Source: a virus (taxonomy: Duplodnaviria > Caudoviricetes). Taken from it: 56,348 nucleotides of DNA. Below, one piece after another: positions 9,415-45,548 of this stretch (position 1 is its first letter; each line of letters opens with the position of its first letter). Location: positions 1-56,348 of IMG/VR virus record IMGVR_UViG_3300025030_000129. One strand, written 5' to 3'. Below the pieces are notes generated by a model. That model searched no databases, was not told where the DNA came from, and worked only from the letters and a program-made list of their open reading frames with translations. The translations under genes and the position numbers were made by a program.

Positions 9415-9786
9415 ATGTTAAAACAGGCACGTAAGGCACAAAATAAATCACAGAAAGATTTCGCCGCAATCCTCGGTGTAACGCAACAAACCATATCCAG
9501 CTGGGAAACCACGGGTGATATACCGGAGGATCGCCGGGATGAGGTGTACCGGCTTTACCGAATCGATCCGGATAACGTCATGCCCGATGTTTCCGAATCG
9601 GATCGCGAACTGATCGCCCTGCTCCTGCGCTACGGCAATATGGCCTTGAAAGAGGAGCTCCGTGACAAACTCGAACGTATGAAATCGCTTACGCCTTCCG
9701 GGTCGAGTAATAGGCCCGGAGGTAGTCGTTCGCTGTCGCCGCACCTTCGGGCGAGTTATAGTACCGCTTCAGATATTCGGCTATGA
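9415..9786 (+). CDS. XRE-family (CI-like) repressor
   Basis: AGGAGG SD; LKQARKAQNKSQKDFAAILGVTQQTISSWE HTH. Confidence 0.85.
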   Translation: MLKQARKAQNKSQKDFAAILGVTQQTISSWETTGDIPEDRRDEVYRLYRIDPDNVMPDVSESDRELIALLLRYGNMALKEELRDKLERMKSLTPSGSSNRPGGSRSLSPHLRASYSTASDIRL

Positions 9787-10165
9787 GCGGCGTATCCGTC
9801 GGGATTTCCCCCGGTGACCGGTACAGTTTCAGCCGGGCGTGGATCGCCCCGTATATATCGTGCCAGGTAAGGGCGTCGAGATCCGGCCCGTCGATCCCGG
9901 TAATCTCGCGGATCTGGCGGGCAAGGTCCGGTCGGCGATCGATGAAGTTCCGGTAATTATCGGTCAGCGTTGCCGGTTCGATCTGGAACACCCCGCGCGC
10001 CGGGCCGTTACCGATCTGCCGTCGGTATTTACCCATCTTCGATTCGTGAGCAGCGGCCATGATCAGGGCGGTTTCGGCCGCAGGTGACCACAACGGGTGG
10101 CGGGTGGCGGTAATCGGTACCAGAGCGATATGAATTATTCGACTGAGTGATTCGGCGGTGAACAT
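9689..10165 (-). CDS. endolysin, lysozyme/transglycosylase-like
   Basis: AAHES (catalytic Glu) ...GPARGVFQIEPAT...YLKRYYN; last gene of the late operon. Confidence 0.75.
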   Translation of the reverse strand: MFTAESLSRIIHIALVPITATRHPLWSPAAETALIMAAAHESKMGKYRRQIGNGPARGVFQIEPATLTDNYRNFIDRRPDLARQIREITGIDGPDLDALTWHDIYGAIHARLKLYRSPGEIPTDTPLIAEYLKRYYNSPEGAATANDYLRAYYSTRKA

Positions 10166-10326
10166 GGCGTAGATTCCTCTTCAATGGCAATGGTGAGACA
10201 GCGTTTTAACACGCGGGCCTCGATAGCAGCGTCGACGCCGGCCGGGATAACGACACCTGCGGCGTCACGAATCGGTACCCGTTCGGCAACAGTGAGCAAT
10301 TCGCGGATTCGGTCGGATGTGGTCAT
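10135..10326 (-). CDS. hypothetical protein
   Basis: ATGA overlap with the upstream gene (MTTSDRIRELL...). Confidence 0.55.
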   Translation of the reverse strand: MTTSDRIRELLTVAERVPIRDAAGVVIPAGVDAAIEARVLKRCLTIAIEEESTPCSPPNHSVE

Positions 10327-10634
10327 TCGTGCCCCCGAGGACAACAGACCGCTTGACACTTTTCGATAGCGTCCCATAGATTTTTATGGACCTTTTCATG
10401 GTCTTCTTTCAATTTATCCAAATCTGTTTTTCCTTCGGTACGTAGCTCTTTTATCGCGTCAATCAGTTTATCGTTTGACGCCCGTAGATCCCGCCACATA
10501 AAACCCATCGCTGCGATAAATAACCCACCAACCGCAGCGATACCCGGCCAGTCGGCGGCACCGGTGATAGTATACGTACCAGGTGTGAGGCTACGGAGAA
10601 CTGTCATCAACTGGTCAAACTGATCTGGCTGCAT
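10323..10634 (-). CDS. holin-like single-TM protein with coiled coil
   Basis: TM segment WPGIAAVGGLFIAAMGFMW followed by charged coiled coil; TGATG start overlap; lysis context. Confidence 0.6.
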   Translation of the reverse strand: MQPDQFDQLMTVLRSLTPGTYTITGAADWPGIAAVGGLFIAAMGFMWRDLRASNDKLIDAIKELRTEGKTDLDKLKEDHEKVHKNLWDAIEKCQAVCCPRGHE

Positions 10635-11110
10635 CAATTTCGTACCTCGTCAAGTCGGAATTTTGCCCGAGCCAACCGGTTGAGGCGGTCACGGACGATA
10701 GGGTTTTTCCATGGATCCTCGCTGGCAGGGGAGAAATTCCGCCAGCCGATCCATGAGGAAACGGCCCCGTAATAAATGGTACAACGGGCCAGTGCCTTGA
10801 CCAGTTCCCACCCGTCAAGCCGTGACCACAGAAACGATACGAGGTTTTTTAAAAATCGATTATTTGCCGTTTGAAATGCCGCGTAGGTGTTCTGAGCGAC
10901 CGCCCAGGAACAATCGTGGTCAAGTCACAACGGGGATATACAGATTCCGCCTATGATGTCCGGTACGAGTCGGTCACCGATACCGTCGCCCGCCCCGCAG
11001 AACGTGGGCCACATATTGAGCGGTAGGTCGGGTTCATCGGGCATGAGGTGTTCGAGAAAATCGGCGACTTCCATTTGTGCGCCGTACCGGATGATTTTGA
11101 CCGTTTTCAT
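10634..11110 (-). CDS. putative selenoprotein, phospholipase A2/DUF1353-like (in-frame TGA at 10925-10927 = candidate Sec62)
   Basis: MKTVKII...FCGAGDGIGDRLVPDIIGGICISPL-TGA-LDHDCSW...ANNRFLKNL...IYYGAVSSWIGWRNF...EVRN*; frame stays open 96 codons past the TGA; TGATG overlaps at both ends; SECIS-like hairpin downstream. Confidence 0.75.
10888..10912 (-). promoter_or_regulatory. bacterial SECIS-like element
   Basis: UGUU(C)CUGGGC-GGUC-GCUCAG-AACA begins 12 nt 3' of the UGA; apical loop 23 nt from the UGA and starts with G. Confidence 0.7.
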
Positions 11111-11235
11111 CACAGCACCGCCGCCAGAAATTGCAGGACTATCTCCCGCTGTTCCGGGGTAAGGATGGTTGAGCCGAGCGCCGCTGCAGCCCCGAAAACT
11201 GCCGTTGTTAATGCAATGATTCTTACTTTCGTCAT
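11110..11235 (-). CDS. 41-aa hydrophobic peptide (holin/antiholin-like)
   Basis: GGAGG SD; MTKVRIIALTTAVFGAAAALGSTILTPEQREIVLQFLAAVL; stop overlaps the next ATG. Confidence 0.7.
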   Translation of the reverse strand: MTKVRIIALTTAVFGAAAALGSTILTPEQREIVLQFLAAVL

Positions 11236-11262
11236 TTCGACCTCCAGGCCAAAATATTAATC

Positions 11263-11451
11263 TCAGTTTTCGCACGCCTCATCGCGTGAGCACAATTCGA
11301 TCATCCGCCCTTCACCGGCTGATTTAATCGAGTAATAGATGCACACATCCGGCGTCGCGGCACCGCGAGCGCAGACACCGGGGCAATTATCATCGCGGAG
11401 CGTCCGGACCCCGTGCTCGTCGGTATGCGGGTGTGTGGTTATCTCGATCAT
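11263..11451 (-). CDS. small Cys-rich hypothetical protein
   Basis: MIEITTHPH...; 5 Cys; ATGA overlap with the lipoprotein gene. Confidence 0.55.
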   Translation of the reverse strand: MIEITTHPHTDEHGVRTLRDDNCPGVCARGAATPDVCIYYSIKSAGEGRMIELCSRDEACEN

Positions 11452-12230
11452 CGCGGCCACACCTGAGTGTCGCCGAGCCAGATTTTGCCGTCGCGGATCT
11501 CGGTATCGTAGCCGTAATCGGTGATAAAACAGCCGTTGATTTCCTCGATCGTGCAAGTCCTGCCGCCGGCGCATGTGGTGCATTGCTCGTACTGCGCGGC
11601 GGTGATGGCCCCGGATGACTCGGTTTTCCCGGACCCCGCGCCGCCGCCAGCATTCGCGGACGATTCCCCAGACGCGGTGGCCTGATTGATCGTCACCTGT
11701 GCGTTGTCCGTGGCCATCACCCTCTGCCCCTGTGCCGCCCCTCGTGCCGCTTGGCCTACGGTATAGCCGACAGCTCCGGCAAGGCCGGTTGGCGATTCGA
11801 CCATGCGGGCGACACCTCCGAGGACCGCTTCCGTGCCTTCGGCAAATCCGCTTTTCGGCATCGGAGTAGGCTGCAATTGAGCGAGGGGATTTTGTTTCCC
11901 ACCGGCCAGGGCAATCACCGCATCGCCCAGGATACGCATGTTCTGGTACGCGGCCCATGCGGCTATTTTTTCTGGAGTGTCGAGGACGATCTGCATGTTG
12001 CCTGCTTCAACGGCTTTGGCTTTTGCCTCTTCACGCTCGGCAATCGCAACGGCTTTGATGGCGTCAACTTTTTTGCCCTCGACTGAAGCCCACGCGTCAT
12101 ATCGCCCCTTGCCGGTAGACTCTGTGCTGATGTCGCCAATAAACGGCAGGTCGAGGTTGCTGCTTCCGCCGCCTTCACCGGCACAACCGGAAAGCGGGAG
12201 CAGGGCCAGGAGGATGAGTATGTTTTTCAT
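11448..12230 (-). CDS. lipoprotein (possibly spanin-related)
   Basis: MKNILILLALLPLSG-C lipobox; GAGG SD. Confidence 0.7.
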   Translation of the reverse strand: MKNILILLALLPLSGCAGEGGGSSNLDLPFIGDISTESTGKGRYDAWASVEGKKVDAIKAVAIAEREEAKAKAVEAGNMQIVLDTPEKIAAWAAYQNMRILGDAVIALAGGKQNPLAQLQPTPMPKSGFAEGTEAVLGGVARMVESPTGLAGAVGYTVGQAARGAAQGQRVMATDNAQVTINQATASGESSANAGGGAGSGKTESSGAITAAQYEQCTTCAGGRTCTIEEINGCFITDYGYDTEIRDGKIWLGDTQVWPR

Positions 12231-12272
12231 TTTTACCTCTGTGTTAGTCAAAAGATTGCTGATAGTTTTTAA

Positions 12273-14075
12273 TCAGTCACCGACATACCGCTTTATAGCT
12301 GCCGCTTTGGCGCTCATATCGACGCTGTATAATGCTGCCGCCTTGGTGCCGCCGAACAGGTAGGTATCGTCTGCGAGAGACGCAAGAGCAGCAAGGGCAG
12401 CGGCATCATCGGCCATCGTTTTGCCCACTCCGTCAGCATCATATACGGCATTATCAACTCCGGTTCTGGCGATAATTTCAGGGGCAGACGGCCATCTAAT
12501 GGGGTCGCGAAGCAGAGAATATTTGACACGCCCGGCTTTTTGGAGAGTATTGCCCATGGCATCGGCTGAACCAGCGGAGAGGGCTGGCTGTTTCCCAGTT
12601 AGGATAAACATGGCAGTAGGTGTTGGCTCCCAAGTATCTCCGGTGTATGGGACGTTTGCAATCAACCAATCTGCAATTCGCTGGTGCCCTGCCCGGTTTA
12701 AGTGGGTAGCGTCGGCGATGAATAAGGAGGGGTCTTGCGCCCCATTACCATCAGAACAGAGCGCCCTGGTATCGACATACTGCAATCCCAATTCCGCCGC
12801 CTTTGCCTCTAGCCAGGTGTTATAACTCACACACCACGGGTCATACAGAGGACCGATATCGGAGTAGTTTATCGAAAAAACAACCACATTATCCGCCAGC
12901 AACAGAGCTTTGGTTATCAATTCCTCCATTGTGGCCCGCATTGCTGTATTAGGGTCGGCGGGAATCAAACTCGCCTGGTAACAGTCATTTAACCCACCCT
13001 CTAAAAAGATCGTCCCGGCTTTAACCGCGTTTGCATCAAATTTTGCTGATATTTGCGCCAACGTGTCTCCTGACACGCCGTAGTTTATATAAATCGCGCC
13101 TTTGCCGCGCCCGTAAATGCTGGTATATGTCCTGCTGTTGGAGTTAATTCCGGGTGCGTCGGCCCGCGCAAAAGCACATATTGAATCCCCGAATGATAGC
13201 AGCCCGCCGACCGTCGGAAAATCAAACCGAGCGCAACCGGCAGTCACGTTACTGACAACATCGGTTGTGCCGTTTCTCAGCCCAGCCTGCAAGTTCATCG
13301 CCACCGTTGACACCCACTCCATGGTGGCTATTTCAGTGTCGGAGTCGGTTATGGCAAACGATTTCACAATCTCGGTGAATGGAGATGAGGTCATTGCGAT
13401 GTGCAGTCTAATTATCTGATCAGCGCGGGTTACTGCGCTTATCGGTATCGTTAATCTAACCAGTCGGCCGATGGTTACAGGGATATTTTGCTGAGTCACT
13501 AGGGCGTTTTTGCTGGCGGCAAACGATACCACGTTACCAGCGGCAACCGTTGTCCCGCTGGTTTTTGCCCAAGCGGCATTAGTCATATCACACGATTGCC
13601 GAAAATAGTTGTACCTCTCACTATAGCCAATCTGATTTAGCCAATCAGAGCCGACCGTTAGGCTCTCGACAATCGCATTGTTGAGGGTGTATCCCGTAAG
13701 GGTGAGGTGCCGACCATTGCCTGATACATCAAACATCACGGCAACGGTTGTGCTGATTCGCGTGGGGTATTCGTAGTGCGACCCATTGCTGAGGACAAAA
13801 CTGTACAATGTGCCGTCTGATACATATATTCGTCCGGCGGCGACTGTCAGTGTTGCAGCAGTGCCGGTTTTGCTGACGACAGTCTCGGTCCCGACAATTG
13901 TTGAGCTAGCTAAATATCCGGAATTATCCCCCAGCAGATACCATTTCTTTTGCACGGCTCTGCTCGATATGCCGGTATCATCAATCAGTCCGTTCGACAC
14001 CAACGCCTTAAACGACAATCCCGTAGTCGGCAACCGCAACCCACCACCGCCAAGCGATAAACCGAATCCTAGCAT
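12273..14075 (-). CDS. tail/virion protein with SGNH (GDSL) hydrolase domain
   Basis: Blocks FGDSI, NYGVSG, GGLND, DATHLNRAGH. Confidence 0.8.
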   Translation of the reverse strand: MLGFGLSLGGGGLRLPTTGLSFKALVSNGLIDDTGISSRAVQKKWYLLGDNSGYLASSTIVGTETVVSKTGTAATLTVAAGRIYVSDGTLYSFVLSNGSHYEYPTRISTTVAVMFDVSGNGRHLTLTGYTLNNAIVESLTVGSDWLNQIGYSERYNYFRQSCDMTNAAWAKTSGTTVAAGNVVSFAASKNALVTQQNIPVTIGRLVRLTIPISAVTRADQIIRLHIAMTSSPFTEIVKSFAITDSDTEIATMEWVSTVAMNLQAGLRNGTTDVVSNVTAGCARFDFPTVGGLLSFGDSICAFARADAPGINSNSRTYTSIYGRGKGAIYINYGVSGDTLAQISAKFDANAVKAGTIFLEGGLNDCYQASLIPADPNTAMRATMEELITKALLLADNVVVFSINYSDIGPLYDPWCVSYNTWLEAKAAELGLQYVDTRALCSDGNGAQDPSLFIADATHLNRAGHQRIADWLIANVPYTGDTWEPTPTAMFILTGKQPALSAGSADAMGNTLQKAGRVKYSLLRDPIRWPSAPEIIARTGVDNAVYDADGVGKTMADDAAALAALASLADDTYLFGGTKAAALYSVDMSAKAAAIKRYVGD

Positions 14076-14076
14076 G

Positions 14077-14325
14077 TCACATCACCAAAAGCGAACAGGA
14101 CGTATCGGACGTATACGTATTTCCAGGCACTATACCAATCGGAAAATACGCCACCAGAGGAAATTCCGTACCACCGTTAATCTTCAGGTTCACGTCCACT
14201 GTGGCCACGAAAAACTTATCGCCGTTGGTCGGGGTCCACGCTTCGGTAGCAACAATAGCCTGTACCCTACGTGCAACAAAACCCTGGATAGGCTGGTTCG
14301 AGGTATCACGGTTTAATTTTCCCAT
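14077..14325 (-). CDS. small beta-rich virion protein
   Basis: AAGGAG SD; directly upstream of the SGNH gene. Confidence 0.65.
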   Translation of the reverse strand: MGKLNRDTSNQPIQGFVARRVQAIVATEAWTPTNGDKFFVATVDVNLKINGGTEFPLVAYFPIGIVPGNTYTSDTSCSLLVM

Positions 14326-17300
14326 TTTTTACTCCTTTTAAGGTACTCGGTTTGTACGTTTACGATTTTTTCTTCAATCAATTTCGTCGGTCTTCCGGTT
14401 GCTTCTGCTTTATTACGTGCTTCCCGTAGTTTCGTAAGCGTACTCTCCGCATCCTTTACCAAGCTTACCATTTTATACCGCGGATCGGAAGCCATTTTTT
14501 TACGGGTATCCGCGTCAGCAGCAAGATAATTTTGACGGAATCGTTCAACCTGGTCGGCCGATTCGTAATATCGTTCCGATATCGAACGGTTGGACCACTG
14601 CCCGTACACCCGCCGAGCGAACGGAATTTTCGCCGGTTCTACAGGTTCGTCACCGGTAATCGCTTGTATTGGCGTGACTACGGAATCTTTCAGGAACCGG
14701 CCGGCCGAACCGGTAACCGTTTCGTACATCAGTTCGATCACCTCGGGAGAGATGTCGACTGCAGCGGTGTTGTCGTACTCGCCCTGACCACCCGTGAGCC
14801 GGTGCAGCCCTTGGGCGATATTTTTCGCGATACCCGATGTGGACTTCCAGTACCGGTAGGCATCGGCTTTACCGGGACCGAACGGTGATTCTTTCGGCAT
14901 GAGGTCCGAGCCGGACCACGTTTTATTCTCGCCGACCATGACGAACGGATCGACGACGGTCGGGGCGAGAGCCTGGGTCACCGTGGCCGATTGCAGCGGG
15001 TTGAAGCTGTTCAGTGCCATCGTCACGGTACGCATTGCCGCTTTTGCCGCATCGTATTTTCGGCCGGTGGCGGCAGTATGGAACCCCCGTACGATCTCGG
15101 CACCGACGTTGTAAAACAGATTGTACCCGTATGGCATGGGGATTTTCGCGAATTTACCACCACTGTCGGGGATCATGATAATCATATTCCGTTCCCGGAT
15201 AAAATCCGGTATCCCGTCGACGAACGGTTCACCGGTTTCATCGTCCCCGCCCGTGGCGTAGGCGAGTAGTTGCAGGGTGGCACCCGTGACCACAATGCCG
15301 CCGACGATCACCCGGACCCGTGGGGAACGACTGACGGCCTTAATCATCCGGACGTTGCCCTGAACGCCCGCGTTGAAAAACATGTACAGGGCGTTAATCG
15401 CCGGGGAATCGGCACCGCGCCGGGTGAAGTCTACGGTGAGGTTCGAGGCGGTGAGGGCGGCACGTGAAGGGGTGGCGCCGGATTTAATCATCTGGTCGTA
15501 GAACGCCAGGCGGACCCCGTTTTCCACGGCGGTATTGGTGCGGCTGATTGCGTCGCCGATAACCCGCAGGGATTTCTTCGGGATGTGCCCGTCGCGATAC
15601 AGGTCCATCGTCGATTCGATCTGTTTCGCCAGATCCTTGATTCCGTCGTACGACTGCATCCAACCGATTTTTCCGCCGTTCGCGGCGAAGTCCCGGTATA
15701 CCTTGCCCCAGTATGTTCCAGCTTTGCCATATTCGGCGCCGAGAATTCCCCGGATCGCCGGGAACACGTTTTTCAGAACGCGACCCTGTAACCCGCGGGC
15801 CTCGGTATCTTCCATGTGGACGCCAGCGGTCTGAATATCGCGGGTGAAGTTCGACAGCACGAATTCCGGGGACAGTGTGGTGTTCACCATCGCGAGTATC
15901 CGGATCATCTTCGACAGTGCCGCCATCGGTCCGCTGAGATTCGCGTCGGCGTTTTTAATCGATTCGAGGAATCGATTGGTGGTCGGATTCTTCGTGTCGA
16001 ACGTCAGGGTAAACCGTTCCCCATCAACCCGGATGTACAGTTCGTTATCCGCTTCCCTCGGCGCCGTGTACATCACGATATTCCCGTCGGCATCATGAGT
16101 CGGGTTTTTCGCCTGTTTGCCAACGGTGATCCCGGCGTCCGGATTCTCGCGGGCGAAATTCACTAGCACCCGGCCAGCATCGGCTTTGTGTTTGCGGGTG
16201 ATCGCCGTCTGGACGTTCTGGATCGAATGGGCGAGGATGTGGACGACTTCCAGCATGGAACCCTTGGCCACCTTAATCGGGCTGCCGGTTGGTCCGGTGA
16301 CGCGGCCTGTTGCCGGCCGGGTATCGTCCTCGATGTCGCGGTGGAGCGGCACGTAAAATTCGTAGCCGTCGACCAGACTGCGGTATTCCACATCGGACAG
16401 CTGGCCCGATTCGCGCAGGATGTCGAGTTTCAGTTGCCCCAGGTCGAGCAGTTGTTGATGGGCTACGGTGAGCGCCTGGAACCGTGGATCGGCAGTCCAG
16501 CGGTTGACGATATCGTTTGCCTCGGCGTCCGTGATCCCGGCGAACCGGGGCGATTCGAGTTCCCAGCGATCACGGACGGCTTCGATTTCGTCCAGGTGTT
16601 TCGACCGGGCATCGAGCCGTTTCTGCAGGTTGTCGGGGGTACCTTTCAGCACTTCGGCGGCGGTAAATATTCGCTGACTTAACTCCGTCTGACGTGTGGC
16701 CACATCTGCTCGTTGGGTCGCGATACCGGTGAACAGGTCGTCCAAGACTTCCAGGTAACGATCCTGTCGATCGGCGCGGGTACCGCCGGTCATCAGCACA
16801 TCGGAACGGATATCGATCAACCGTTCCTCCAAGGCGGCACGTTCGGCACTGTTCAGGTGCGCGGCGGCCATATCGATGAATCGTTTGGCGTTGACCTGTT
16901 GCATCCGTTTGTTCCGCTCGGGCGCGTGTTTCGCGTGGGCGTATTCGTCGAGATCTGCCGGGGCCAGTTTGGCCCGGGCGAGTCCTGCGAGGAGCGGTTC
17001 GGCGGTGGTTTTCATGAACTGTTCTGCCTCGTCCGCCGTTTTCTTACCGCGCAGTCGTTCGATGGTGAGGATATCGGTATTCTCGGACAGGTTCTCGGAC
17101 AGGTTCACCACATCGGCCCGTTTCAGTACCCGGCGCCGGGGATCATCCTTATCGATTGCCGAGTAGAGAAACCGTTCCCATTGGTCCGACAGGTTCGGAT
17201 GTTTCGCGAGAAACCGGTCAATGGCGTCGGGTTGGGTCGTGGTGGGTGATTGGGCGTAGAGGGTCGATTCGAGGGACTGGTGCGCCACGTTCTCCACCGA

Positions 17301-20300
17301 TCCACCACTCTTACCCGCCAACGCCAGCACCCGGGCCGATGCTTCGAAATTCGGTGCATCCTTACGCATGGCCTCCACTAAATCGCCGGCGGCCATATTC
17401 GCCGCTTCGAGCCAGGTTGGCCGACGGGCGAACATCCGGGCGAAGAATCCCCGGATCGCCGCGAGGAACCTCTCGCGTAACGTCTTCCCGCGATATTCCC
17501 GTTCGGACATCCAGTCGATGGTTTCCGGATGGGTCAGGGCGTAGGTGAGGAATTCGTCCGGATTTTCCGCCGGCACCCGTAGCCACACTGGTAGATCTGT
17601 TCTTCCACGACCGTACGCACGAACCGCTTCGCCGAATTCTTCCCAGACGGCCCGGTACTGTTTCAGGGCGGCTTCGGCCTGGTGGTTCCCGAGTTTCCCC
17701 GGATTCGCCAGGTAATAATTCAGCATGTCGTAACGGGCCAGGACCGCCGCGTGCCACGATTCATGCAACAATGTGGCCTCGTTGTGACCATCGCCGTACA
17801 GGGTGATACCGATCCGTTTGCCCGCCCGGTCCGTTTTCGCGATACCGGCCGCATTGGTCCGGGTGTCGGTCACGGTCAGACTGAGACGGTCGGGATCGGG
17901 TAACAGGGTGAGCAGGTCCTCCGCCATGGTGCGGAATCGTTCAGACGTGGAGTTGTCCCGGATGTTTTCCAGTAAACCGTGGACCGTCTGACCGTCGGTG
18001 CGAACTGCTTCGTTGAACGGACGGGGTGCGGCCGTTACGATATCGCCGCCGGCTGCGGCCCAGGCGATCAAGGCGCCGCCTTGTTTGATGAATTCCCGGC
18101 GGGTAGTGGGTGATTCAAGGATGTCTGTTATCGATACGTCGGCGTCGTTGAAGATCACATAGTTGAAATTGCCGTCGCCTTTGCCTCTGCTGGTGCCATC
18201 GAGGTATTTTATGCCGCGGATGCCGAGGGAGTGGAGATATTCGGAGGCGGCCTTCTCGCTATCCTCCCTACCTTTAGAAAAATTATGCCTATCCAGCGCA
18301 TCATATAGGTCAGAGCCGGTAGGGTTTTCAATACGTAAATTAGAATTTACATCATCATGAATTTTCTGTACTTCCCCATTTTCGAGCGCCGCCTTCACCT
18401 TCTCCGATTGTTCCGACAACGGGCGGTCCCAGAGTAAATATTCATCCTCGGCGGGGGCGAGTTCGACTTGGTAGAGCTTGCCGGATGCCGATTTTTCACG
18501 AGCGAGGCGTTTTTTACCGTCTTCCAGGAGTTTCTTCGGATCACCGTTGTATTCAAGGATCTTCAGTCCGTCGATAATGTCTGCAGGTTTTATCCCGGAA
18601 AACAGTTGTCCAGCAACCCACAATTCCGGATCGGCTGAAAACGACGCATCAAGTAACCGACGGGCGGAACCAGATAGCGTGGTACGGTAGTGATCAGCCA
18701 CCTCTCTCTTACCAGCAAAATATAAACCGTGTCCGTAAGCCTGCGCCCCCTCGCCGGTACCAATCGCGGCCGTGCTGAATTTATCGAATGAATGGGGTGA
18801 TCCGTGGTAGGCGGCCGCTTCCAACACCGAATCAATTTCCCGGCTGTACGCCCCCGAATTCCGTTCGGCCGATTTCACCTGATTCGGGTCGAAAATCACC
18901 ACCTGTGCCCGGTCCTCGATGATCAACCCGTCGTATCCTTCCGCGATGAGTCGTGTTCGCAGGGCTCGGGCGGTTTCACTGTCGACGACCACCCGTTCCA
19001 GCCGGTCCGACTGGACCACGTAGGGATTTTCCATCCGCACATAAAACGCATGAGTCGTTCCCTCTGTGCCGACACTGTGCGCGTCGGCGATCGTTTCATC
19101 ACCGAGAAACGCACCCAAGGCGGCCAGTGGGGACGAGCCGGGACGAGCCGGGCGATTCAGGTCGAAGGTCCAGGTTTTCGATAGAAAATCCGGATCTGAT
19201 GTGCCGTGGTATAAAATTACCGGCGTACCTTGGTCGGTGATTTTCGAGGCGCCGAACCAGCGGCGGAACGTCGGCGAATTTTCCCGAAGTCCTCGCCCGG
19301 TTTCAGGGGTCGGCCGTTCAGTTTTTTCAGTAGGTCGGTCATTGGTATCTCCTATGGTTGATTCCAGGGTGTCGTCGAGTCCACTGCCGGTCGGTTCGGG
19401 GGGTCGCCTCGCCCGTTGTACGACATGAGTAACTTCTTCCGGCGCGGCCGCTTCCAGGGTGTCGTCGAGGCCAGCGACAGAATCCGCTTTAATCCGCTGT
19501 TGAACACTCTTCACCGGCAACCACTGTCCTTTATATTCAAACTCCCAATTCCCTACTTGTTTTCCGTTGACGGACGTTGACGTTCCGGTCGGTCGGTATT
19601 TTTTACCGTCAACAATGACTGTTTTCTCGATAGCCGGTTCGGGTGACGGTTTCCCGCCGCCGGGACCGGACGGTTTCACCGCCTCCAACCGTTTCACTAA
19701 GTCTTCATCGGGCGTCGAGTCGCGATTGAACGCAAACGATAAATTCCGCAGCGTGCCCACATGGGGTTTCAGTTTCTCGACGGTCTTACCCGCTATTCCG
19801 AGATAGTCAGCGGCGAGAATATAAGATCGTGCGTCGGCGACCGAATCGAAAGCGTCAACGGCAAACCCGGTTTCAGGATGGACGACATTATATCCTTTAC
19901 CGATTTTTTCGAAACCGAACGAACCGTAAACCATGGCGGTTGCGGATTCGGTTTTACCTTCTGGCATCTGCCGAGAGTATTCGGTTTTTTTAAATTTCCC
20001 GGTCAGCCCTGAAATAACGTTATCGAATCGTGCCCGTAGATCTCGGCGTTTACGTTCTTCCGCTGCACGAGTTTTTTCACGTTCCGCCCGTTTCGTCTCA
20101 GTATCCGATTCGATTTCAACCTTTTTCCAAAACCAGAATTTTTCAACAAAATTCTCAACGGTCTTTTCCTCGTTCGGCCCCGACCCGAGTAATTTATCCC
20201 CGCTTTTAAATCTGATTCGTCCGTTCTTTACCGAGGCTTGTACCGATAGCTTCTTCGTACCTTTGATGATAAATCCTTCGTTATCTATTTCCGCACCGTA

Positions 20301-23300
20301 CTTGGATAGCGCCGAGGCTATACCCACACGGTATTTATAACCGCCGTCGCGGGCGAGGACTGGTTCGGACTCGGTAGTTTTACCCCGCAGGTCACGTTCC
20401 GATTTCGCAGTACTCCCCTGCACCGTTTCCGGTCGACCGGCGTTATCCTTCCGTACCTTCTCAGCAAACTTCTGTCGGGCAACGTCCTGGTCGGTAACAG
20501 TCCCCCGCCGAACCAATGGACCTTTAGACGGACCATGCCCACTGACCCATTTCCGGAACGCTTCCATCGGTACACGGGTCACGGATCGCCCACCGGTCCA
20601 GCCGGATTCATAATTCGACTGGTATAACTGAAGGGCTTCCTGTTCGGTGGTCGGCCCGACGACGGTCTTGTGTTCATCGAAGGTGTCGTCCGGTTTATAT
20701 TGGTTCACCACGAATACATCAGCCGCCCCACCCGTGTAGCCGGGTTTGACGAATATGTCTACATGGTCTTTGTCCCGGCCACGGGTGCCTTTGATGTAGC
20801 CATAATCGGCGGTCAGATCCTGCGACCAGGCGCGGCCGGTGGCATCGGTACCACGACGGGTCGAACCGACCGGGTTTTCAATGGAGAGATTCAGGCCGTC
20901 GATGGTCACATGGGCCTTCTGATAGTTCCCCGCCTCTGCTTGGGCGGGGGTTGGTTCGGTATTTACCGGCTGGTCGGCGGCGATTGATTCGGCTGTAGGT
21001 TTACCAGAACGAGACGACGAGGGGCCAGGAGGTACCCCTCGCGTCTCTCCCGCGAGGAGTGAGGCCGCGGTGTTCGGTGCGGGGGCCGATTCCGCAGTTG
21101 GGCCGGGGGTATTCTGTCGTTCGATCAAATGCCGGGCGTAATCGATTCCTGTTTTCGTGAGGACATTAGGACCGAGGAAACTGCCGTCGGGGTCCGCCAG
21201 ATTACCGTCCTCGTCAACAGTGTATCCAGCGTTCACACGATCACGGATGAGATCCCGTTTTGTCAGTACTCGGCCACCGTAATTCACCTGTTTCGACAAC
21301 GCACTGAGTACCCGGCCGCGCTGCATCGGGGTCATTGAGGAATCAAATTCGTCGAGGTCTTCCCTCGCGGCACGGTCGGCAGACTCTTTCTCATCCCGGA
21401 CACGTTGTTCCGCTTCTTCCTTCTGGCGAAACACAGCATTCGATTCGTCTCGAACCTTCTTCTCTTCGGAATATTTCTGCGCTTCTTCAAGCGTCCCGAA
21501 GATTCGGTCACCCCCACCACGTGGCATATCCCCACGAACGGCGAACATTTCACCACGATCTTTTATGCTCGTGGTGTATACGTCGTATTGCTGGGCTTCT
21601 TCGAAGGGTTTGACAGCAATGATTTTAACCCCGTCGGTGTCAGCCGGTAATACGGTCCCGGAATCTGATGCCCCTCCATTAATTTTACTAGTTTCTTCAA
21701 TTGTTCCAGTTCCATTCTGTCCCCCTTCAATGACCGGTTCGGGCGGATTCTCCACCCGACGAACATCCTCGCCCGCCTGCAGCGTCACGGCATCGTCCGC
21801 CCATGTGTTCACAAGGTCGTCAGCTTCAGATTCGGCAAACGCCGTTTCAATGTCCCCCTGACGTGCGGCCCGTTGTTCGACCTCGCTCGGTCCCGCCTCG
21901 GCCAGCACCGCCGCCGACTCTTCCGCCGTGGACGACCTGCCGGTACGGTTCGCTTCCAATTCATCCGCTGCAACATACCGATCAGCCAACCGCTGTTTCA
22001 ACTGTTCGAACCGGACCGAGCGGCCCCGGGCGTCGGCCTGCGCCTGAATGTCCATTTCCGAATCGGCCCAGTCGTCCATGAGGTCGTCGGCGGCAAGGTC
22101 CGGCTGCATCCCCGCCAGGTTCGCTTCCGCTGCCGGTACCTGCTGCTCAAACGCTCGGGCCTGTTCCGCCTGCAGCACCTTGAACCGTTCGTTTATAATT
22201 CGCTCAACGTGGGGCGCAACCATCGGGTTCTTCTCGCGCAACATCGGCAGGACGTCACGCTGGACCCGCTGAACCTCTGCCAGATCGGCCCCGGCGTACC
22301 GGGCCTGGACGGCGGCGATTCCTTCGATTTCGTCAGGGGTCAGTTCCCCCAGGGTGATGTTCGGCGCCCCGGTCGGATTCGTGGCCGTTTCGATCTGGGC
22401 GGCAACCTGTTCCGGATCGGCCCCGAGCGGTACGTCCTGGGCGATCTGCTGGGCTTGACCGAGACTGAGCAGTTTCGACCCGCCGCCCATCGTGCCACCC
22501 ATCATACCACCGGATGCGAAACCGAGTGCAGCAGCTTCCCCCGTGTTTTCGCTGAGCGACTGGTTCGGGTCGAGATTTCTCCGTGTGACTACATTCTCGC
22601 CGAACTGTTCCGTCGGCGACTGCAGACCTTCCTGAACGGATTCCTTGCCGATTCCTTCGACCGTCTCACGGAGCACACCCTGTTTCAGGGCGCCCTTCTG
22701 GAACAGCTTCGGCATCGCACCGCCGGGGGCAACGGCGCCGCCGGCCAATGTGGCGGCAAACTGAGTCTTGACCGTTTCCTCTTCGACGATCCCGCGCAGT
22801 TCGGCCCGAGCGGTCGCCGGGTCCATCCCCTGTTTCAGCAGTTCCTGGTAAACCGGGGATTTCCGCAACGTCTGTTCCGGCATCTTCTCGATTCGTTCAC
22901 CGGCGTCGGCCGCCGACACCAGGGCCGATGTTCCCGCCTCGGACGCCCCGAACGTGATGAGATTATGGGACCACTTGCCGACCTTCGAACCGCCCTCGAC
23001 CGCGCGGATGAATTCTGGCAGGAACTTCGCTTTCGAAATCGCCGCCGACGCACCACCACCGAGCGGAGCGGTTGCGATCATGAGCGGCAACGATTCGGAC
23101 GATACCATGAAAACTTTCTTGATGGCGTTATCATCGAACCATTTACCGTCCTCATCGGATAAAAACGGCTGCGCCTGGACGTCCTTACCCTGCTGTGAGA
23201 TCTGGGAGGTGTAAAAATCTTCCGTGGTTTTCGCAATGTCGAGCAGGGACTGTTTAGAGTCTTCCGCCCCGAACCAGCCGGCAACGGTTGCGGCCGCCTT

Positions 23301-23609
23301 CGGAATCGCCGACGTACCGGCCAGGCCAGACATTACCACGTCTTTTACATCTGTACCGAACGATACATCTTCGAGCGGCAGGTCGATCCCGTAAAAATCC
23401 TGGTACGATTTACGGAAATACTCCTGTTGATCGGCGGGTAACGATTGGTATTCCGGATCGGCGATAGCTGACTTGAACTGTTCCAGGACCTCATCGGTGC
23501 CGTTCTCGGAAATGTATTCGCGGGAGAGAGCTCGTTGTGTTTCAGGGGAGGACTGCGACCACTCGTCGGAAGATTCGAGTTCGGCCAGGGAGAAATCATA
23601 AGGCGGCAT
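14313..23609 (-). CDS. large polyvalent (probably injected) protein: InPase, two ADP-ribosyltransferase-like domains, zincin HExxH, LPD38
   Basis: GNYQKAH..SIENPVGS..DYGYIKGT..DKDHVD; FRRWFGASK..YHGT..GYDG..FDPNQVKS; YHGSPH..GTGEGAQAYGHGLYF; LLHESWH; KIPMPYGYN..NKTWSG. Confidence 0.85.
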   Translation of the reverse strand: MPPYDFSLAELESSDEWSQSSPETQRALSREYISENGTDEVLEQFKSAIADPEYQSLPADQQEYFRKSYQDFYGIDLPLEDVSFGTDVKDVVMSGLAGTSAIPKAAATVAGWFGAEDSKQSLLDIAKTTEDFYTSQISQQGKDVQAQPFLSDEDGKWFDDNAIKKVFMVSSESLPLMIATAPLGGGASAAISKAKFLPEFIRAVEGGSKVGKWSHNLITFGASEAGTSALVSAADAGERIEKMPEQTLRKSPVYQELLKQGMDPATARAELRGIVEEETVKTQFAATLAGGAVAPGGAMPKLFQKGALKQGVLRETVEGIGKESVQEGLQSPTEQFGENVVTRRNLDPNQSLSENTGEAAALGFASGGMMGGTMGGGSKLLSLGQAQQIAQDVPLGADPEQVAAQIETATNPTGAPNITLGELTPDEIEGIAAVQARYAGADLAEVQRVQRDVLPMLREKNPMVAPHVERIINERFKVLQAEQARAFEQQVPAAEANLAGMQPDLAADDLMDDWADSEMDIQAQADARGRSVRFEQLKQRLADRYVAADELEANRTGRSSTAEESAAVLAEAGPSEVEQRAARQGDIETAFAESEADDLVNTWADDAVTLQAGEDVRRVENPPEPVIEGGQNGTGTIEETSKINGGASDSGTVLPADTDGVKIIAVKPFEEAQQYDVYTTSIKDRGEMFAVRGDMPRGGGDRIFGTLEEAQKYSEEKKVRDESNAVFRQKEEAEQRVRDEKESADRAAREDLDEFDSSMTPMQRGRVLSALSKQVNYGGRVLTKRDLIRDRVNAGYTVDEDGNLADPDGSFLGPNVLTKTGIDYARHLIERQNTPGPTAESAPAPNTAASLLAGETRGVPPGPSSSRSGKPTAESIAADQPVNTEPTPAQAEAGNYQKAHVTIDGLNLSIENPVGSTRRGTDATGRAWSQDLTADYGYIKGTRGRDKDHVDIFVKPGYTGGAADVFVVNQYKPDDTFDEHKTVVGPTTEQEALQLYQSNYESGWTGGRSVTRVPMEAFRKWVSGHGPSKGPLVRRGTVTDQDVARQKFAEKVRKDNAGRPETVQGSTAKSERDLRGKTTESEPVLARDGGYKYRVGIASALSKYGAEIDNEGFIIKGTKKLSVQASVKNGRIRFKSGDKLLGSGPNEEKTVENFVEKFWFWKKVEIESDTETKRAEREKTRAAEERKRRDLRARFDNVISGLTGKFKKTEYSRQMPEGKTESATAMVYGSFGFEKIGKGYNVVHPETGFAVDAFDSVADARSYILAADYLGIAGKTVEKLKPHVGTLRNLSFAFNRDSTPDEDLVKRLEAVKPSGPGGGKPSPEPAIEKTVIVDGKKYRPTGTSTSVNGKQVGNWEFEYKGQWLPVKSVQQRIKADSVAGLDDTLEAAAPEEVTHVVQRARRPPEPTGSGLDDTLESTIGDTNDRPTEKTERPTPETGRGLRENSPTFRRWFGASKITDQGTPVILYHGTSDPDFLSKTWTFDLNRPARPGSSPLAALGAFLGDETIADAHSVGTEGTTHAFYVRMENPYVVQSDRLERVVVDSETARALRTRLIAEGYDGLIIEDRAQVVIFDPNQVKSAERNSGAYSREIDSVLEAAAYHGSPHSFDKFSTAAIGTGEGAQAYGHGLYFAGKREVADHYRTTLSGSARRLLDASFSADPELWVAGQLFSGIKPADIIDGLKILEYNGDPKKLLEDGKKRLAREKSASGKLYQVELAPAEDEYLLWDRPLSEQSEKVKAALENGEVQKIHDDVNSNLRIENPTGSDLYDALDRHNFSKGREDSEKAASEYLHSLGIRGIKYLDGTSRGKGDGNFNYVIFNDADVSITDILESPTTRREFIKQGGALIAWAAAGGDIVTAAPRPFNEAVRTDGQTVHGLLENIRDNSTSERFRTMAEDLLTLLPDPDRLSLTVTDTRTNAAGIAKTDRAGKRIGITLYGDGHNEATLLHESWHAAVLARYDMLNYYLANPGKLGNHQAEAALKQYRAVWEEFGEAVRAYGRGRTDLPVWLRVPAENPDEFLTYALTHPETIDWMSEREYRGKTLRERFLAAIRGFFARMFARRPTWLEAANMAAGDLVEAMRKDAPNFEASARVLALAGKSGGSVENVAHQSLESTLYAQSPTTTQPDAIDRFLAKHPNLSDQWERFLYSAIDKDDPRRRVLKRADVVNLSENLSENTDILTIERLRGKKTADEAEQFMKTTAEPLLAGLARAKLAPADLDEYAHAKHAPERNKRMQQVNAKRFIDMAAAHLNSAERAALEERLIDIRSDVLMTGGTRADRQDRYLEVLDDLFTGIATQRADVATRQTELSQRIFTAAEVLKGTPDNLQKRLDARSKHLDEIEAVRDRWELESPRFAGITDAEANDIVNRWTADPRFQALTVAHQQLLDLGQLKLDILRESGQLSDVEYRSLVDGYEFYVPLHRDIEDDTRPATGRVTGPTGSPIKVAKGSMLEVVHILAHSIQNVQTAITRKHKADAGRVLVNFARENPDAGITVGKQAKNPTHDADGNIVMYTAPREADNELYIRVDGERFTLTFDTKNPTTNRFLESIKNADANLSGPMAALSKMIRILAMVNTTLSPEFVLSNFTRDIQTAGVHMEDTEARGLQGRVLKNVFPAIRGILGAEYGKAGTYWGKVYRDFAANGGKIGWMQSYDGIKDLAKQIESTMDLYRDGHIPKKSLRVIGDAISRTNTAVENGVRLAFYDQMIKSGATPSRAALTASNLTVDFTRRGADSPAINALYMFFNAGVQGNVRMIKAVSRSPRVRVIVGGIVVTGATLQLLAYATGGDDETGEPFVDGIPDFIRERNMIIMIPDSGGKFAKIPMPYGYNLFYNVGAEIVRGFHTAATGRKYDAAKAAMRTVTMALNSFNPLQSATVTQALAPTVVDPFVMVGENKTWSGSDLMPKESPFGPGKADAYRYWKSTSGIAKNIAQGLHRLTGGQGEYDNTAAVDISPEVIELMYETVTGSAGRFLKDSVVTPIQAITGDEPVEPAKIPFARRVYGQWSNRSISERYYESADQVERFRQNYLAADADTRKKMASDPRYKMVSLVKDAESTLTKLREARNKAEATGRPTKLIEEKIVNVQTEYLKRSKKWEN

Positions 23610-44336: not shown

Positions 44337-45548
44337 ATGTACTTTGGCAAGAACGGTGCTTCGTCGGCGTTCCCTTTTTCGCGACAGGAAGCACGAAAAG
44401 TAAGAAGCAAGATTTATACAGGAGAGGAATGTTCCATCTGCGGAACGAAGGACCACTACACTAAAACCGATATCTGTGTTCGTTGTTCAAAAGATTGGGC
44501 CAACGATCTGTTTTGCTACGCAGCAGGAGCGATTAAATTTGAACGAACGAACGAAGGAGTATTTGTTATTCCCGGTCCTATGGTTAAAACCGTTAAGAAA
44601 CATTTGATCCCAGATCAGGTATGGATAGATATTTATACCATGGTTGATAGTCCAAATTGCCTGTTTATGAAAAACGGTGTTTTGGCAAAATCTGAATACG
44701 ACGCGTCCCGACTTGGATTGTCCCACTATCTAGTCCCTGTCCCCTGTGAGATGTCCGGGCATTTCGGCGTACTCACCATCAGCGGAAAATGCTCATATTG
44801 TGAATCAGAGTCCGATGAACGGATACTTGCCCGGCAAAGAGGGGAGAAATATTATACACCGGGCCAACCTTGCACCCGTTGTGGTCACACTGCGGAACGG
44901 CGAACGAGTGACAACCGCTGTACGGGATGTTTCCCGGTAATGCGGAAGCACGTAAGCGATATTGCCAGAATCGACGCAAGGAACAATGGGAAGATTTGGT
45001 ATACCCCTTTGACTCCGTGCCGAAAATGCGGTGAAATGGCCCTTCGCAGGGTGAGCGATAATCGTTGTTCGGCTTGTTCCCCATTACTGGATACAAACGT
45101 CCCGCGGGCACTGGCCAGGTCGTTCGGGCAGAAATGGTACATCCCTGAAGACCCATGCCCGCGATGCGGGAAGATAGTCCGGCATCGGGTGAACGACGAC
45201 AAATGCAATGGGTGCTATCCCGCTATGACTGATCGTGATACCGAGAGCCCCCGCCAAGCTGCGTTACGTGCCGGTAAGAAATGGTATGTGCCGAAAGACC
45301 CATGCCCGCGTTGCGGGATGATTGCCGACCGTCGGGTAAGTGATGGTCAGTGTCAAGGTTGCGTACCCCAGTTAGATCGAGAAACCTCCATAATGATGGA
45401 AGCCGCCCCCGATATGGTGGTGTCACGCGACGATGCCCGCCGGCTGGGCCTGAAGGTCTACCGGACCGGTGACGCGTGTCAGCGAGGCCACAGGGGGTTC
45501 AGATGGGTATCGACGGGCGGGTGTATCGAGTGTTTGAAGGGACGGTGA
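44337..45548 (+). CDS. tandem zinc-finger repeat protein (7 units)
   Basis: AGGAGG SD; repeats A...G..WY.P..PC.RCG....RRVSD..C..C. Confidence 0.8.
   Translation: MYFGKNGASSAFPFSRQEARKVRSKIYTGEECSICGTKDHYTKTDICVRCSKDWANDLFCYAAGAIKFERTNEGVFVIPGPMVKTVKKHLIPDQVWIDIYTMVDSPNCLFMKNGVLAKSEYDASRLGLSHYLVPVPCEMSGHFGVLTISGKCSYCESESDERILARQRGEKYYTPGQPCTRCGHTAERRTSDNRCTGCFPVMRKHVSDIARIDARNNGKIWYTPLTPCRKCGEMALRRVSDNRCSACSPLLDTNVPRALARSFGQKWYIPEDPCPRCGKIVRHRVNDDKCNGCYPAMTDRDTESPRQAALRAGKKWYVPKDPCPRCGMIADRRVSDGQCQGCVPQLDRETSIMMEAAPDMVVSRDDARRLGLKVYRTGDACQRGHRGFRWVSTGGCIECLKGR

Follow-up and report, generated by a model that had tools for sequence, protein, structure and literature searches.

The tailed-phage record IMGVR_UViG_3300025030_000129, whose full 56,348 bases form the window analyzed here, carries a predicted phospholipase A2 (PLA2)-like gene that is interrupted at codon 62 by an in-frame TGA (TGA62). 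This gene, termed the UGA gene, lies at the 3' end of the late strand in a cassette of overlapping genes, all of them on the minus strand. A sequence-only reading of the window had proposed that TGA62 is recoded by insertion of selenocysteine (Sec) and that the selenium state of the host thereby gates lysis. The features of the locus, beginning with the gene and the signals within it, are as follows:

10634..11110 (-): the PLA2-like UGA gene, 158 codons, interrupted by TGA at codon 62 and closed by a second TGA
10925..10927 (-): the in-frame TGA at codon 62, a translation signal whose next base is C
10888..10912 (-): a hairpin like a selenocysteine insertion sequence (SECIS), with two runs of 5 pairs separated by a bulged C, and the loop GGUC (10901-10898)
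11110..11235 (-): a gene for a peptide of 41 aa that contains a single hydrophobic stretch; a strong GGAGG precedes its ATG by 5 nt
10323..10634 (-): a gene for a 103-aa protein in which one hydrophobic stretch precedes a tail that is charged, probably coiled-coil, and has C-terminal cysteines (by eye)
10135..10326 (-): a gene for a 63-aa soluble protein, whose last 31 nt lie inside the 158-aa gene
9689..10165 (-): a gene for a putative cell-wall-degrading enzyme of 158 aa, similar to lysozyme or soluble lytic transglycosylase (SLT) by motif; the last gene of the late strand

The genes of the cassette are joined by short overlaps. The TGA of the 41-aa gene (11112-11110) overlaps the ATG of the UGA gene (11110-11108) as TGATG. 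Another 96 open codons follow TGA62 in frame, up to a second TGA (10636-10634), which overlaps the ATG (10634-10632) of the 103-aa gene, again as TGATG. The TGA of the 103-aa gene (10325-10323) in turn overlaps the ATG of the 63-aa gene (10326-10324) as ATGA. Together with the 31-nt overlap between the 63-aa and 158-aa genes, these junctions can be read directly from the bases and bear out the chain that the sequence-only reading had described. The UGA gene itself lacks a good ribosome-binding site, a detail that fits translational coupling; its translation is probably dependent on the TGATG that it shares with the 41-aa gene, which has a strong GGAGG. The 103-aa and 158-aa genes each carry GAGG 10 nt before their ATG, in agreement with what had been noted for the holin-like and endolysin genes. 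No internal promoter or terminator on the minus strand of the cassette was convincing in a sigma-70 scan.

A phospholipase A2-like family on phage and metagenome contigs

Five proteins of 152-159 aa match the UGA gene end to end at 47-81% identity. Each of these full-length relatives is a single protein, so the UGA gene, too, is undivided, and the earlier assumption that the 61-aa and 96-codon parts belong together holds. Two separate genes were considered and rejected, since the relatives are undivided and no in-frame start follows TGA62. An exhaustive HMMER search returned 160 cluster representatives at E<=1e-3, and in an 81-row alignment C38, G39, H65, D66, and N89 are invariant.

The family profile matches solved PLA2 chains, with E-values of 3.7e-4 for 8k1w, 1.2e-3 for 1faz, 1.5e-3 for 7ygk, and 1.7e-2 for 4aup. 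The Cys62-x-x-His-Asp motif aligns with the Cys-x-x-His-Asp of the solved chains, and H65-D66 falls on the HD of 8k1w and 1faz. The catalytic His-Asp pair of PF09056-type PLA2s is present as H65 and D66 in 81/81 rows. An AlphaFold2 model of the full-length protein has a pLDDT of 94.2. When this model was searched against the PDB, Foldseek gave no match at E<=0.001, and its top match was the Tuber borchii PLA2 4aup_A (probability 1.00, E 0.17, TM 0.42/0.54). VIA-align, which is independent of Foldseek, matched 4aup_B at Z 9.1, with a root-mean-square deviation of 2.7 over 97 residues; this was the only match above Z 8, and the next entry scored Z 6.1. The model and its matches to 4aup by both methods point to a PLA2 fold.

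In Pfam, the UGA-gene protein has no match at E<=0.1, and 1/81 relatives touches PF09056 at E 0.0018, below the gathering threshold. A search of PHROGs gave no significant match for the protein. On profile and model evidence, the UGA gene is a gene for a PLA2-like enzyme that represents a distant, uncatalogued branch. It shares with the secreted bacterial and fungal PLA2s (PF09056; 1faz from Streptomyces, 4aup from Tuber borchii, 8k1w, and 7ygk) the helical core and the invariant His-Asp after a Cys. Calcium-dependent hydrolysis of the sn-2 ester is the reaction that characterizes these enzymes. Unlike them, the UGA-gene protein has in its model a C-terminal helix and, at the N-terminus, an additional beta-hairpin; it shows no signal peptide by eye and scores below the Pfam threshold, and its gene occurs solely on contigs of phage or metagenome origin and in a lysis-type cluster.

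Relatives are carried by 21 IMG/VR loci and 29 JGI metagenome loci, with several contigs common to both sets. The 21 IMG/VR loci come from an alignment-based scan; a scan with the single protein found 0. Relatives are confined to phage or metagenome contigs, and a host scan with the PLA2-like alignment found none in 185,579 species genomes. The protein P0054, 1495 aa in length, contains 11 separate stretches that match query residues 59-104, the region of the Cys-x-x-His-Asp helix, and is possibly built of PLA2-like modules in tandem.

TGA62 and the hairpin downstream of it

Logan contigs from three independently assembled groundwater runs, which belong to one study that is possibly the source of the record, cover 9600-11500 with 0 differences. 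Their depths are 14.5, 78.3, and 18.2; contigs drop rare variants, and minor alleles at TGA62 could go unseen in them. Because the contigs of all three runs are identical over this interval, TGA62 is real and is not a sequencing error. A run from a second study holds identical pieces, which do not cover 10729-11174 and so do not include the TGA. The 61-aa product is recorded on 22 contigs, the longest of which has 59,718 bases; public assemblies thus hold a fuller copy of the genome than the 56,348-base record.

TGA62 is a site-specific feature and not the mark of a changed genetic code, as the sequence-only reading had maintained. TGA is the commonest terminator of the genome and ends 35 of the 50 open reading frames (ORFs) of at least 100 aa, against 11 for TAA and 4 for TAG. 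In the whole record, TGA62 is the sole in-frame TGA that joins two long open segments within a real gene, and other pairs of same-frame segments on the coding strand are neighboring genes with their own starts. A search of the record for tRNA genes found none, and thus no suppressor tRNA. Phages with reassigned stops (TAG/TGA) resemble the present case in having an in-frame stop in a gene of the late or lysis region. However, a phage with reassigned TGA is recognized by many in-frame TGAs, a rare TGA terminator, and a suppressor tRNA, whereas here one site is affected, TGA is the main terminator, and no such tRNA is found. Alternatively coded phages, which had been cited as the precedent, are therefore a poor fit. 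The metagenomic origin of the record and its CheckV completeness estimate of 87% would leave room for an assembly or sequencing artifact, or for a code in which TGA is a sense codon. Against this stand the three identical assemblies at depths of 14.5-78.3, the 22 contigs with the 61-aa product, the single in-frame TGA, the lack of a suppressor tRNA, and the use of TGA as the stop of most long ORFs, including the UGA gene itself. An artifact or a changed code is thus highly improbable.

Among protein and DNA relatives, TGA62 is unique to one phage genotype. Codon 62 encodes Cys in 5/5 of the closest proteins, the top three of which are 81%, 64%, and 62% identical. In the alignment, column 62 holds Cys in 79/81 rows (the phage's own row read as C) and Gly in 2, which leaves Cys in 78/80 relatives, and the Cys62 codon of relatives is TGC or TGT. 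A stop stands at the aligned position in 0/21 IMG/VR loci and in 0/28 readable JGI loci of 29 (L051 loses frame earlier). A search for relatives of the 61-aa product at 33-107 aa among 5.8 billion proteins found only the product itself. Contigs of a co-occurring strain, ~80-90% identical and from the same samples, match 9678-10133, in the hydrolase gene, and 10681-10892, in the 3' part of the PLA2-like gene; they end at 10892, short of the TGA, and the strain is probably the Cys-form relative P0002.

Cys62 is probably a structural residue of the PLA2-like fold and not a redox center, because it aligns with the Cys before His-Asp in PLA2s and because the Cys is shifted in variants that have Gly62. 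Among the latter, a Cys lies two residues later in 1/2 representatives and in many IMG/VR loci, which fits a structural partner of the invariant Cys38. In secreted PLA2s, the Cys before His-Asp is disulfide-bonded to a Cys of the calcium loop, the counterpart of C38.

The predicted energy of the hairpin is -10.4 kcal/mol, and 23 nt separate its loop from the TGA. In the Fig. 2 legend of PMC13188914, the model of the bacterial SECIS (bSECIS) specifies a loop of 3-9 nt, an upper stem of 4-16 bp, a G within the first two loop bases, a spacing of 16-37 nt, and a minimum free energy of <=-7.5. With its 4-nt loop GGUC, 5-bp upper stem, and 23-nt spacing, the hairpin satisfies the model as set out there (PMC13188914). 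By looser criteria than those of the published model, 225/2412 codons pass.

Of 5587 codons sampled from the coding sequence of the phage, 269 (4.8%) pass the model, 133 (2.4%) do so with a G[G/U] loop, and 81 (1.45%) have a hairpin at least as good. The corresponding counts are 16 (8.6%), 8, and 5 for 186 Cys codons and 1, 0, and 0 for 35 terminal TGAs. The 71-nt fold has a z-score of -1.35, and 23/200 shuffles fold as well. When the phage's own peptide is recoded with random synonymous codons, 892/3000 versions pass, so the choice of codons adds nothing. An Rfam search of 10500-11300 with permissive filters found no SECIS family, and returned only mir-1829 (E 5.8) and sR3 (E 0.42) at chance level. 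The E. coli SECIS needs a bulged U, whereas the bulge here is a C.

A hairpin that passes the model stands at the aligned codon in 0/28 distinct sequences of relatives. The phage's own peptide has a hairpin propensity of 29%, the highest of 30 family peptides, against a mean of 5.2% for the 29 relatives. The three closest relatives score 3.7%, 1.2%, and 9.8%, values that for these Cys-form proteins (P0002 to P0004) come from peptide-based simulations and not from their DNA. The 3' arm of the hairpin is supplied by the lineage-specific Ala72-Gln73, where close relatives have Ser-Pro. A SECIS that had co-evolved with the TGA would be expected to show this pattern, which is nevertheless the same single observation as the null of about 5% and adds no second one.

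Nonsense mutation, selenocysteine, or leaky stop

The favored explanation, with a probability of roughly 0.5, is that TGA62 is a recent and real nonsense mutation, which is somewhat more likely than recoding; the odds of all readings are a matter of judgment and not of computation. A near-invariant Cys62 codon, TGC or TGT in relatives, would have turned into TGA in one phage genotype. Ribosomes would then stop after 61 residues, ahead of the catalytic His65-Asp66, and the enzyme would be lost, with a small fraction of ribosomes at most reading through the weak UGA-C signal. The host could still be lysed because the downstream membrane-protein and hydrolase genes each carry their own GAGG ribosome-binding site, which would make them independent of the UGA gene. 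The SECIS-like hairpin would be a chance product of the local peptide sequence. In support of this explanation, the TGA occurs in one genotype only, the null counts and the synonymous recodings make the hairpin weak as evidence, the phage has no tRNA gene, and no Sec-related gene was found among its 52 ORFs scanned. Several observations weigh against it. Of the 56 single-base routes to a stop in the UGA gene, just 5 turn a Cys codon into TGA, all by transversion, and 2 do so at a near-invariant Cys; random nonsense would rarely land there. The hairpin fits all four published SECIS constraints and recurs in none of the 28 relatives and in just 1 of the 35 terminal TGAs, and the peptide that forms it, with Ala72/Gln73 in the 3' arm, ranks first of 30 in propensity. 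The 96 codons after TGA62 are intact, with all invariant residues and the TGATG junction kept, and the TGA genotype is abundant (depth up to 78; 22 contigs) and therefore viable.

These same observations speak for the possible, if rather unlikely, alternative that TGA62 is a true Sec codon, at which the SelB-tRNA(Sec) of the host, acting at the GGUC hairpin, inserts Sec in place of Cys62. The host would need selA, selB, selC, and selD for this. The full-length PLA2-like enzyme would then carry a Sec62-Cys38 link, termination at UGA62 would yield the 61-aa product, and enzyme output, along with some coupled translation of the next gene, would follow the selenium supply of the host. The position of the TGA on a Cys that all five closest relatives and 78/80 representatives share is a coincidence worth roughly 10-25-fold in favor of Sec; just 5/56 nonsense routes would mimic it. 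The hairpin, with chance rates of 4.8%, 2.4% (G[G/U] loop), and 1.45%, is worth roughly another 10-20-fold, and its absence from relatives, the top-ranked propensity, the intact downstream frame and junction, and the fixation of the TGA at high depth point the same way. The source is a groundwater metagenome, and selenocysteine users are common in anoxic groundwater. Bacterial selenoprotein genes, with formate dehydrogenase H (fdhF) of E. coli as the type case, likewise place UGA on the Cys of homologues, with a C after the UGA, a SECIS hairpin within the coding region whose small G-led loop lies 16-37 nt downstream, and an intact downstream frame. Compared with them, the present case is a phage gene, in a single genotype, from a non-redox family in which the Cys is probably structural. 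In fdhF, the loop also lies 5 nt nearer to the UGA than here and the bulge is U rather than C. Further points against Sec are the low prior for a single phage lineage to have a selenoprotein in a non-redox family, the lack of an Rfam match, the modest fold z-score (-1.35; 23/200 shuffles as good), and the fact that 30% of synonymous recodings of the peptide also give the hairpin. The literature searched yielded no phage selenoprotein, and a 2026 review of the prokaryotic selenoproteome uses neither "phage" nor "virus" in its main text. In the Sargasso Sea selenoproteome study, bacterial selenoproteins are described as mostly redox proteins that have a catalytic Sec, single-sequence cases are termed "candidates", and a selenoprotein needs TGA in at least two different sequences (PMC1088965). 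With TGA in a single genotype and in no second sequence, the UGA gene is, by these published criteria, a selenoprotein "candidate" that fails on conservation. The earlier proposal of Sec recoding is thus supported in part, by the Cys alignment and the model-conforming hairpin, whereas a second TGA-bearing sequence is missing and the Cys is probably structural.

Two extensions of the Sec alternative, and a further alternative without Sec, have to be set beside it. More doubtful still by a small degree is its bolder form, in which this would be the first phage-encoded selenoprotein, a PLA2-like lysis enzyme with Sec in place of a structural Cys. In that case the host could be an anaerobe, and its reducing cytoplasm need not prevent formation of a Sec62-Cys38 selenylsulfide; the amount of enzyme and part of the coupled downstream translation would be set by the Sec machinery and selenium of the host. 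Selenium-gated lysis in full, which would require Sec insertion, coupling despite the GAGG sites, and limiting selenium, is speculation with very little probability. It is also improbable, though less so, that TGA62 is a leaky stop that serves as an attenuator, where a near-cognate tRNA (Trp/Cys) reads UGA-C at a few per cent. A self-damaging phospholipase would then be kept low without Sec machinery, and the 61-aa product would be a by-product. UGA-C is the weakest terminator in E. coli, and the UGA-C context, the intact downstream frame and junction, and the abundance of the genotype are consistent with leakage. However, Trp at a position where 78/80 relatives keep Cys would probably cripple the fold, no relative uses the device, and a leaky stop of this kind is indistinguishable from a plain nonsense mutation with incidental leakage.

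The lysis-type cluster and its biological meaning

Two further genes lie upstream of the cassette genes listed above:

11448..12251 (-): a 267-aa ORF with a lipoprotein-like N-terminus (LLPLSGC, lipobox by eye), the first of the overlapping chain and context only
11263..11451 (-): a small Cys-rich gene of 62 aa, whose ATG overlaps the stop of the 267-aa ORF (ATGA)

When seven cassette proteins were searched against Pfam and PHROGs, nothing significant was found except PHROG 3108. This match belongs to the 158-aa protein (E 1.5e-28), is its sole family match, and is of unknown function. The nearest named Atlas clusters of the 158-aa protein are SLT and phage lysozyme, with scores of 0.84-0.85 that serve as leads only. 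It has no Pfam match, and its best match in a PDB sequence search, a dioxygenase at E 0.022, is not meaningful. The earlier labels "holin-like" and "endolysin" are guesses. The 103-aa protein is possibly a holin, a small protein that permeabilizes the inner membrane, or else a membrane protein similar to spanins. By eye it has a single hydrophobic stretch and is encoded beside the hydrolase gene; its build fits an i-spanin too, and its matches in Pfam and PHROGs are all below threshold. The 41-aa peptide matches no Pfam or PHROG family, and the 267-aa ORF has no PHROG match at E<=1e-5.

The neighborhoods of relatives were inspected at seven loci, with gene types mostly judged by eye. In these, the next gene after the PLA2-like gene encodes a protein built like the 103-aa protein, and the junction between the two is a 4-nt overlap in L008, L021, and L022. 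A gene of lysozyme type or for another cell-wall hydrolase comes next in L008, L012, and L022, and small Cys-rich genes like the 62-aa gene lie upstream of the PLA2-like genes. BLASTP found no similarity between the 103-aa protein and the protein of the same build in L008. In L019, a 62-aa gene in the same place as the 63-aa gene encodes a weakly similar protein (pairwise E 4e-5). As judged from gene order and protein build, uncultured tailed phages thus share a conserved lysis-type cluster in the late operon, one member of which is phospholipase-like.

The probable function of the PLA2-like enzyme is to attack membrane lipid when a Gram-negative host is lysed. Lysis proteins of phages that act on lipids or the outer membrane include the mycobacteriophage LysB esterase, spanins, and disruptin. 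Like such accessory lysis proteins, the PLA2-like protein is encoded next to membrane-protein and hydrolase genes, at the end of a late operon and with 4-nt overlaps. In contrast to them, its fold is unrelated, and no lipoprotein partner (o-spanin) was seen.

The record has 55.1% G+C and belongs to a tailed phage. The plus strand carries a replication module with a DNA polymerase, a Gp2.5-like single-stranded DNA-binding protein, and an exonuclease, and the minus strand is a long late strand that encodes a 3098-aa virion protein along with terminase, portal, capsid, and tail proteins. Identity to the nearest isolated phages is just 41-55%, and the hosts of these phages are mixed: for the DNA polymerase, identity reaches 55.5% at most, with enterobacterial phages, and for the terminase 41.4%, with Salinibacter phages. 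Searches by tblastn and blastn with the UGA gene and the surrounding 4 kb found no match in 50,697 phage records, and a host scan of species genomes with the 158-aa hydrolase protein found no relatives.

Further observations concern four other ORFs of the record. The 3098-aa ORF (14313-23609, minus strand) matches the giant virion protein phrog_14770 (E 6e-123) and a DarB-like antirestriction protein; it also has a lysozyme or transglycosylase segment at residues ~877-1035 and a weak match to the virion RNA polymerase phrog_2206 (E 1.4e-21). Directly upstream of the cassette, a 600-aa ORF (12273-14075, minus strand) has no PHROG match. Its C-terminal half looks like an SGNH/GDSL-type esterase by eye, and it may be a tail fiber with a sugar- or lipid-deacylating domain. 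At the other end of the cassette, a helix-turn-helix regulator gene (9415-9786, plus strand) converges on the hydrolase gene (9689-10165, minus strand). The two 3' ends share 98 nt, and the C-terminal tail of the regulator may be a read-on into the hydrolase gene of the opposite strand. A 403-aa ORF (44337-45545, plus strand) has separate matches of ~40 residues to the small PHROGs of unknown function phrog_29682, 20468, 1081, and 15231, and looks assembled from repeated short modules.

With ~160 clusters of PLA2-like proteins absent from Pfam, PHROGs, and bacterial genomes, the family is itself notable. It hints at a lipid-hydrolyzing step in lysis, which is not described for such phages in the literature searched. 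If TGA62 were a true Sec codon, the UGA gene would encode the first bacteriophage selenoprotein and the first Sec form of the PLA2 fold. It would also be a rare case of Sec at a non-redox structural position and would tie lysis genes to the selenium metabolism of the host. If TGA62 is instead the nonsense mutation favored here, the genotype would be a natural knockout, and the PLA2-like gene would be dispensable for an abundant groundwater phage.

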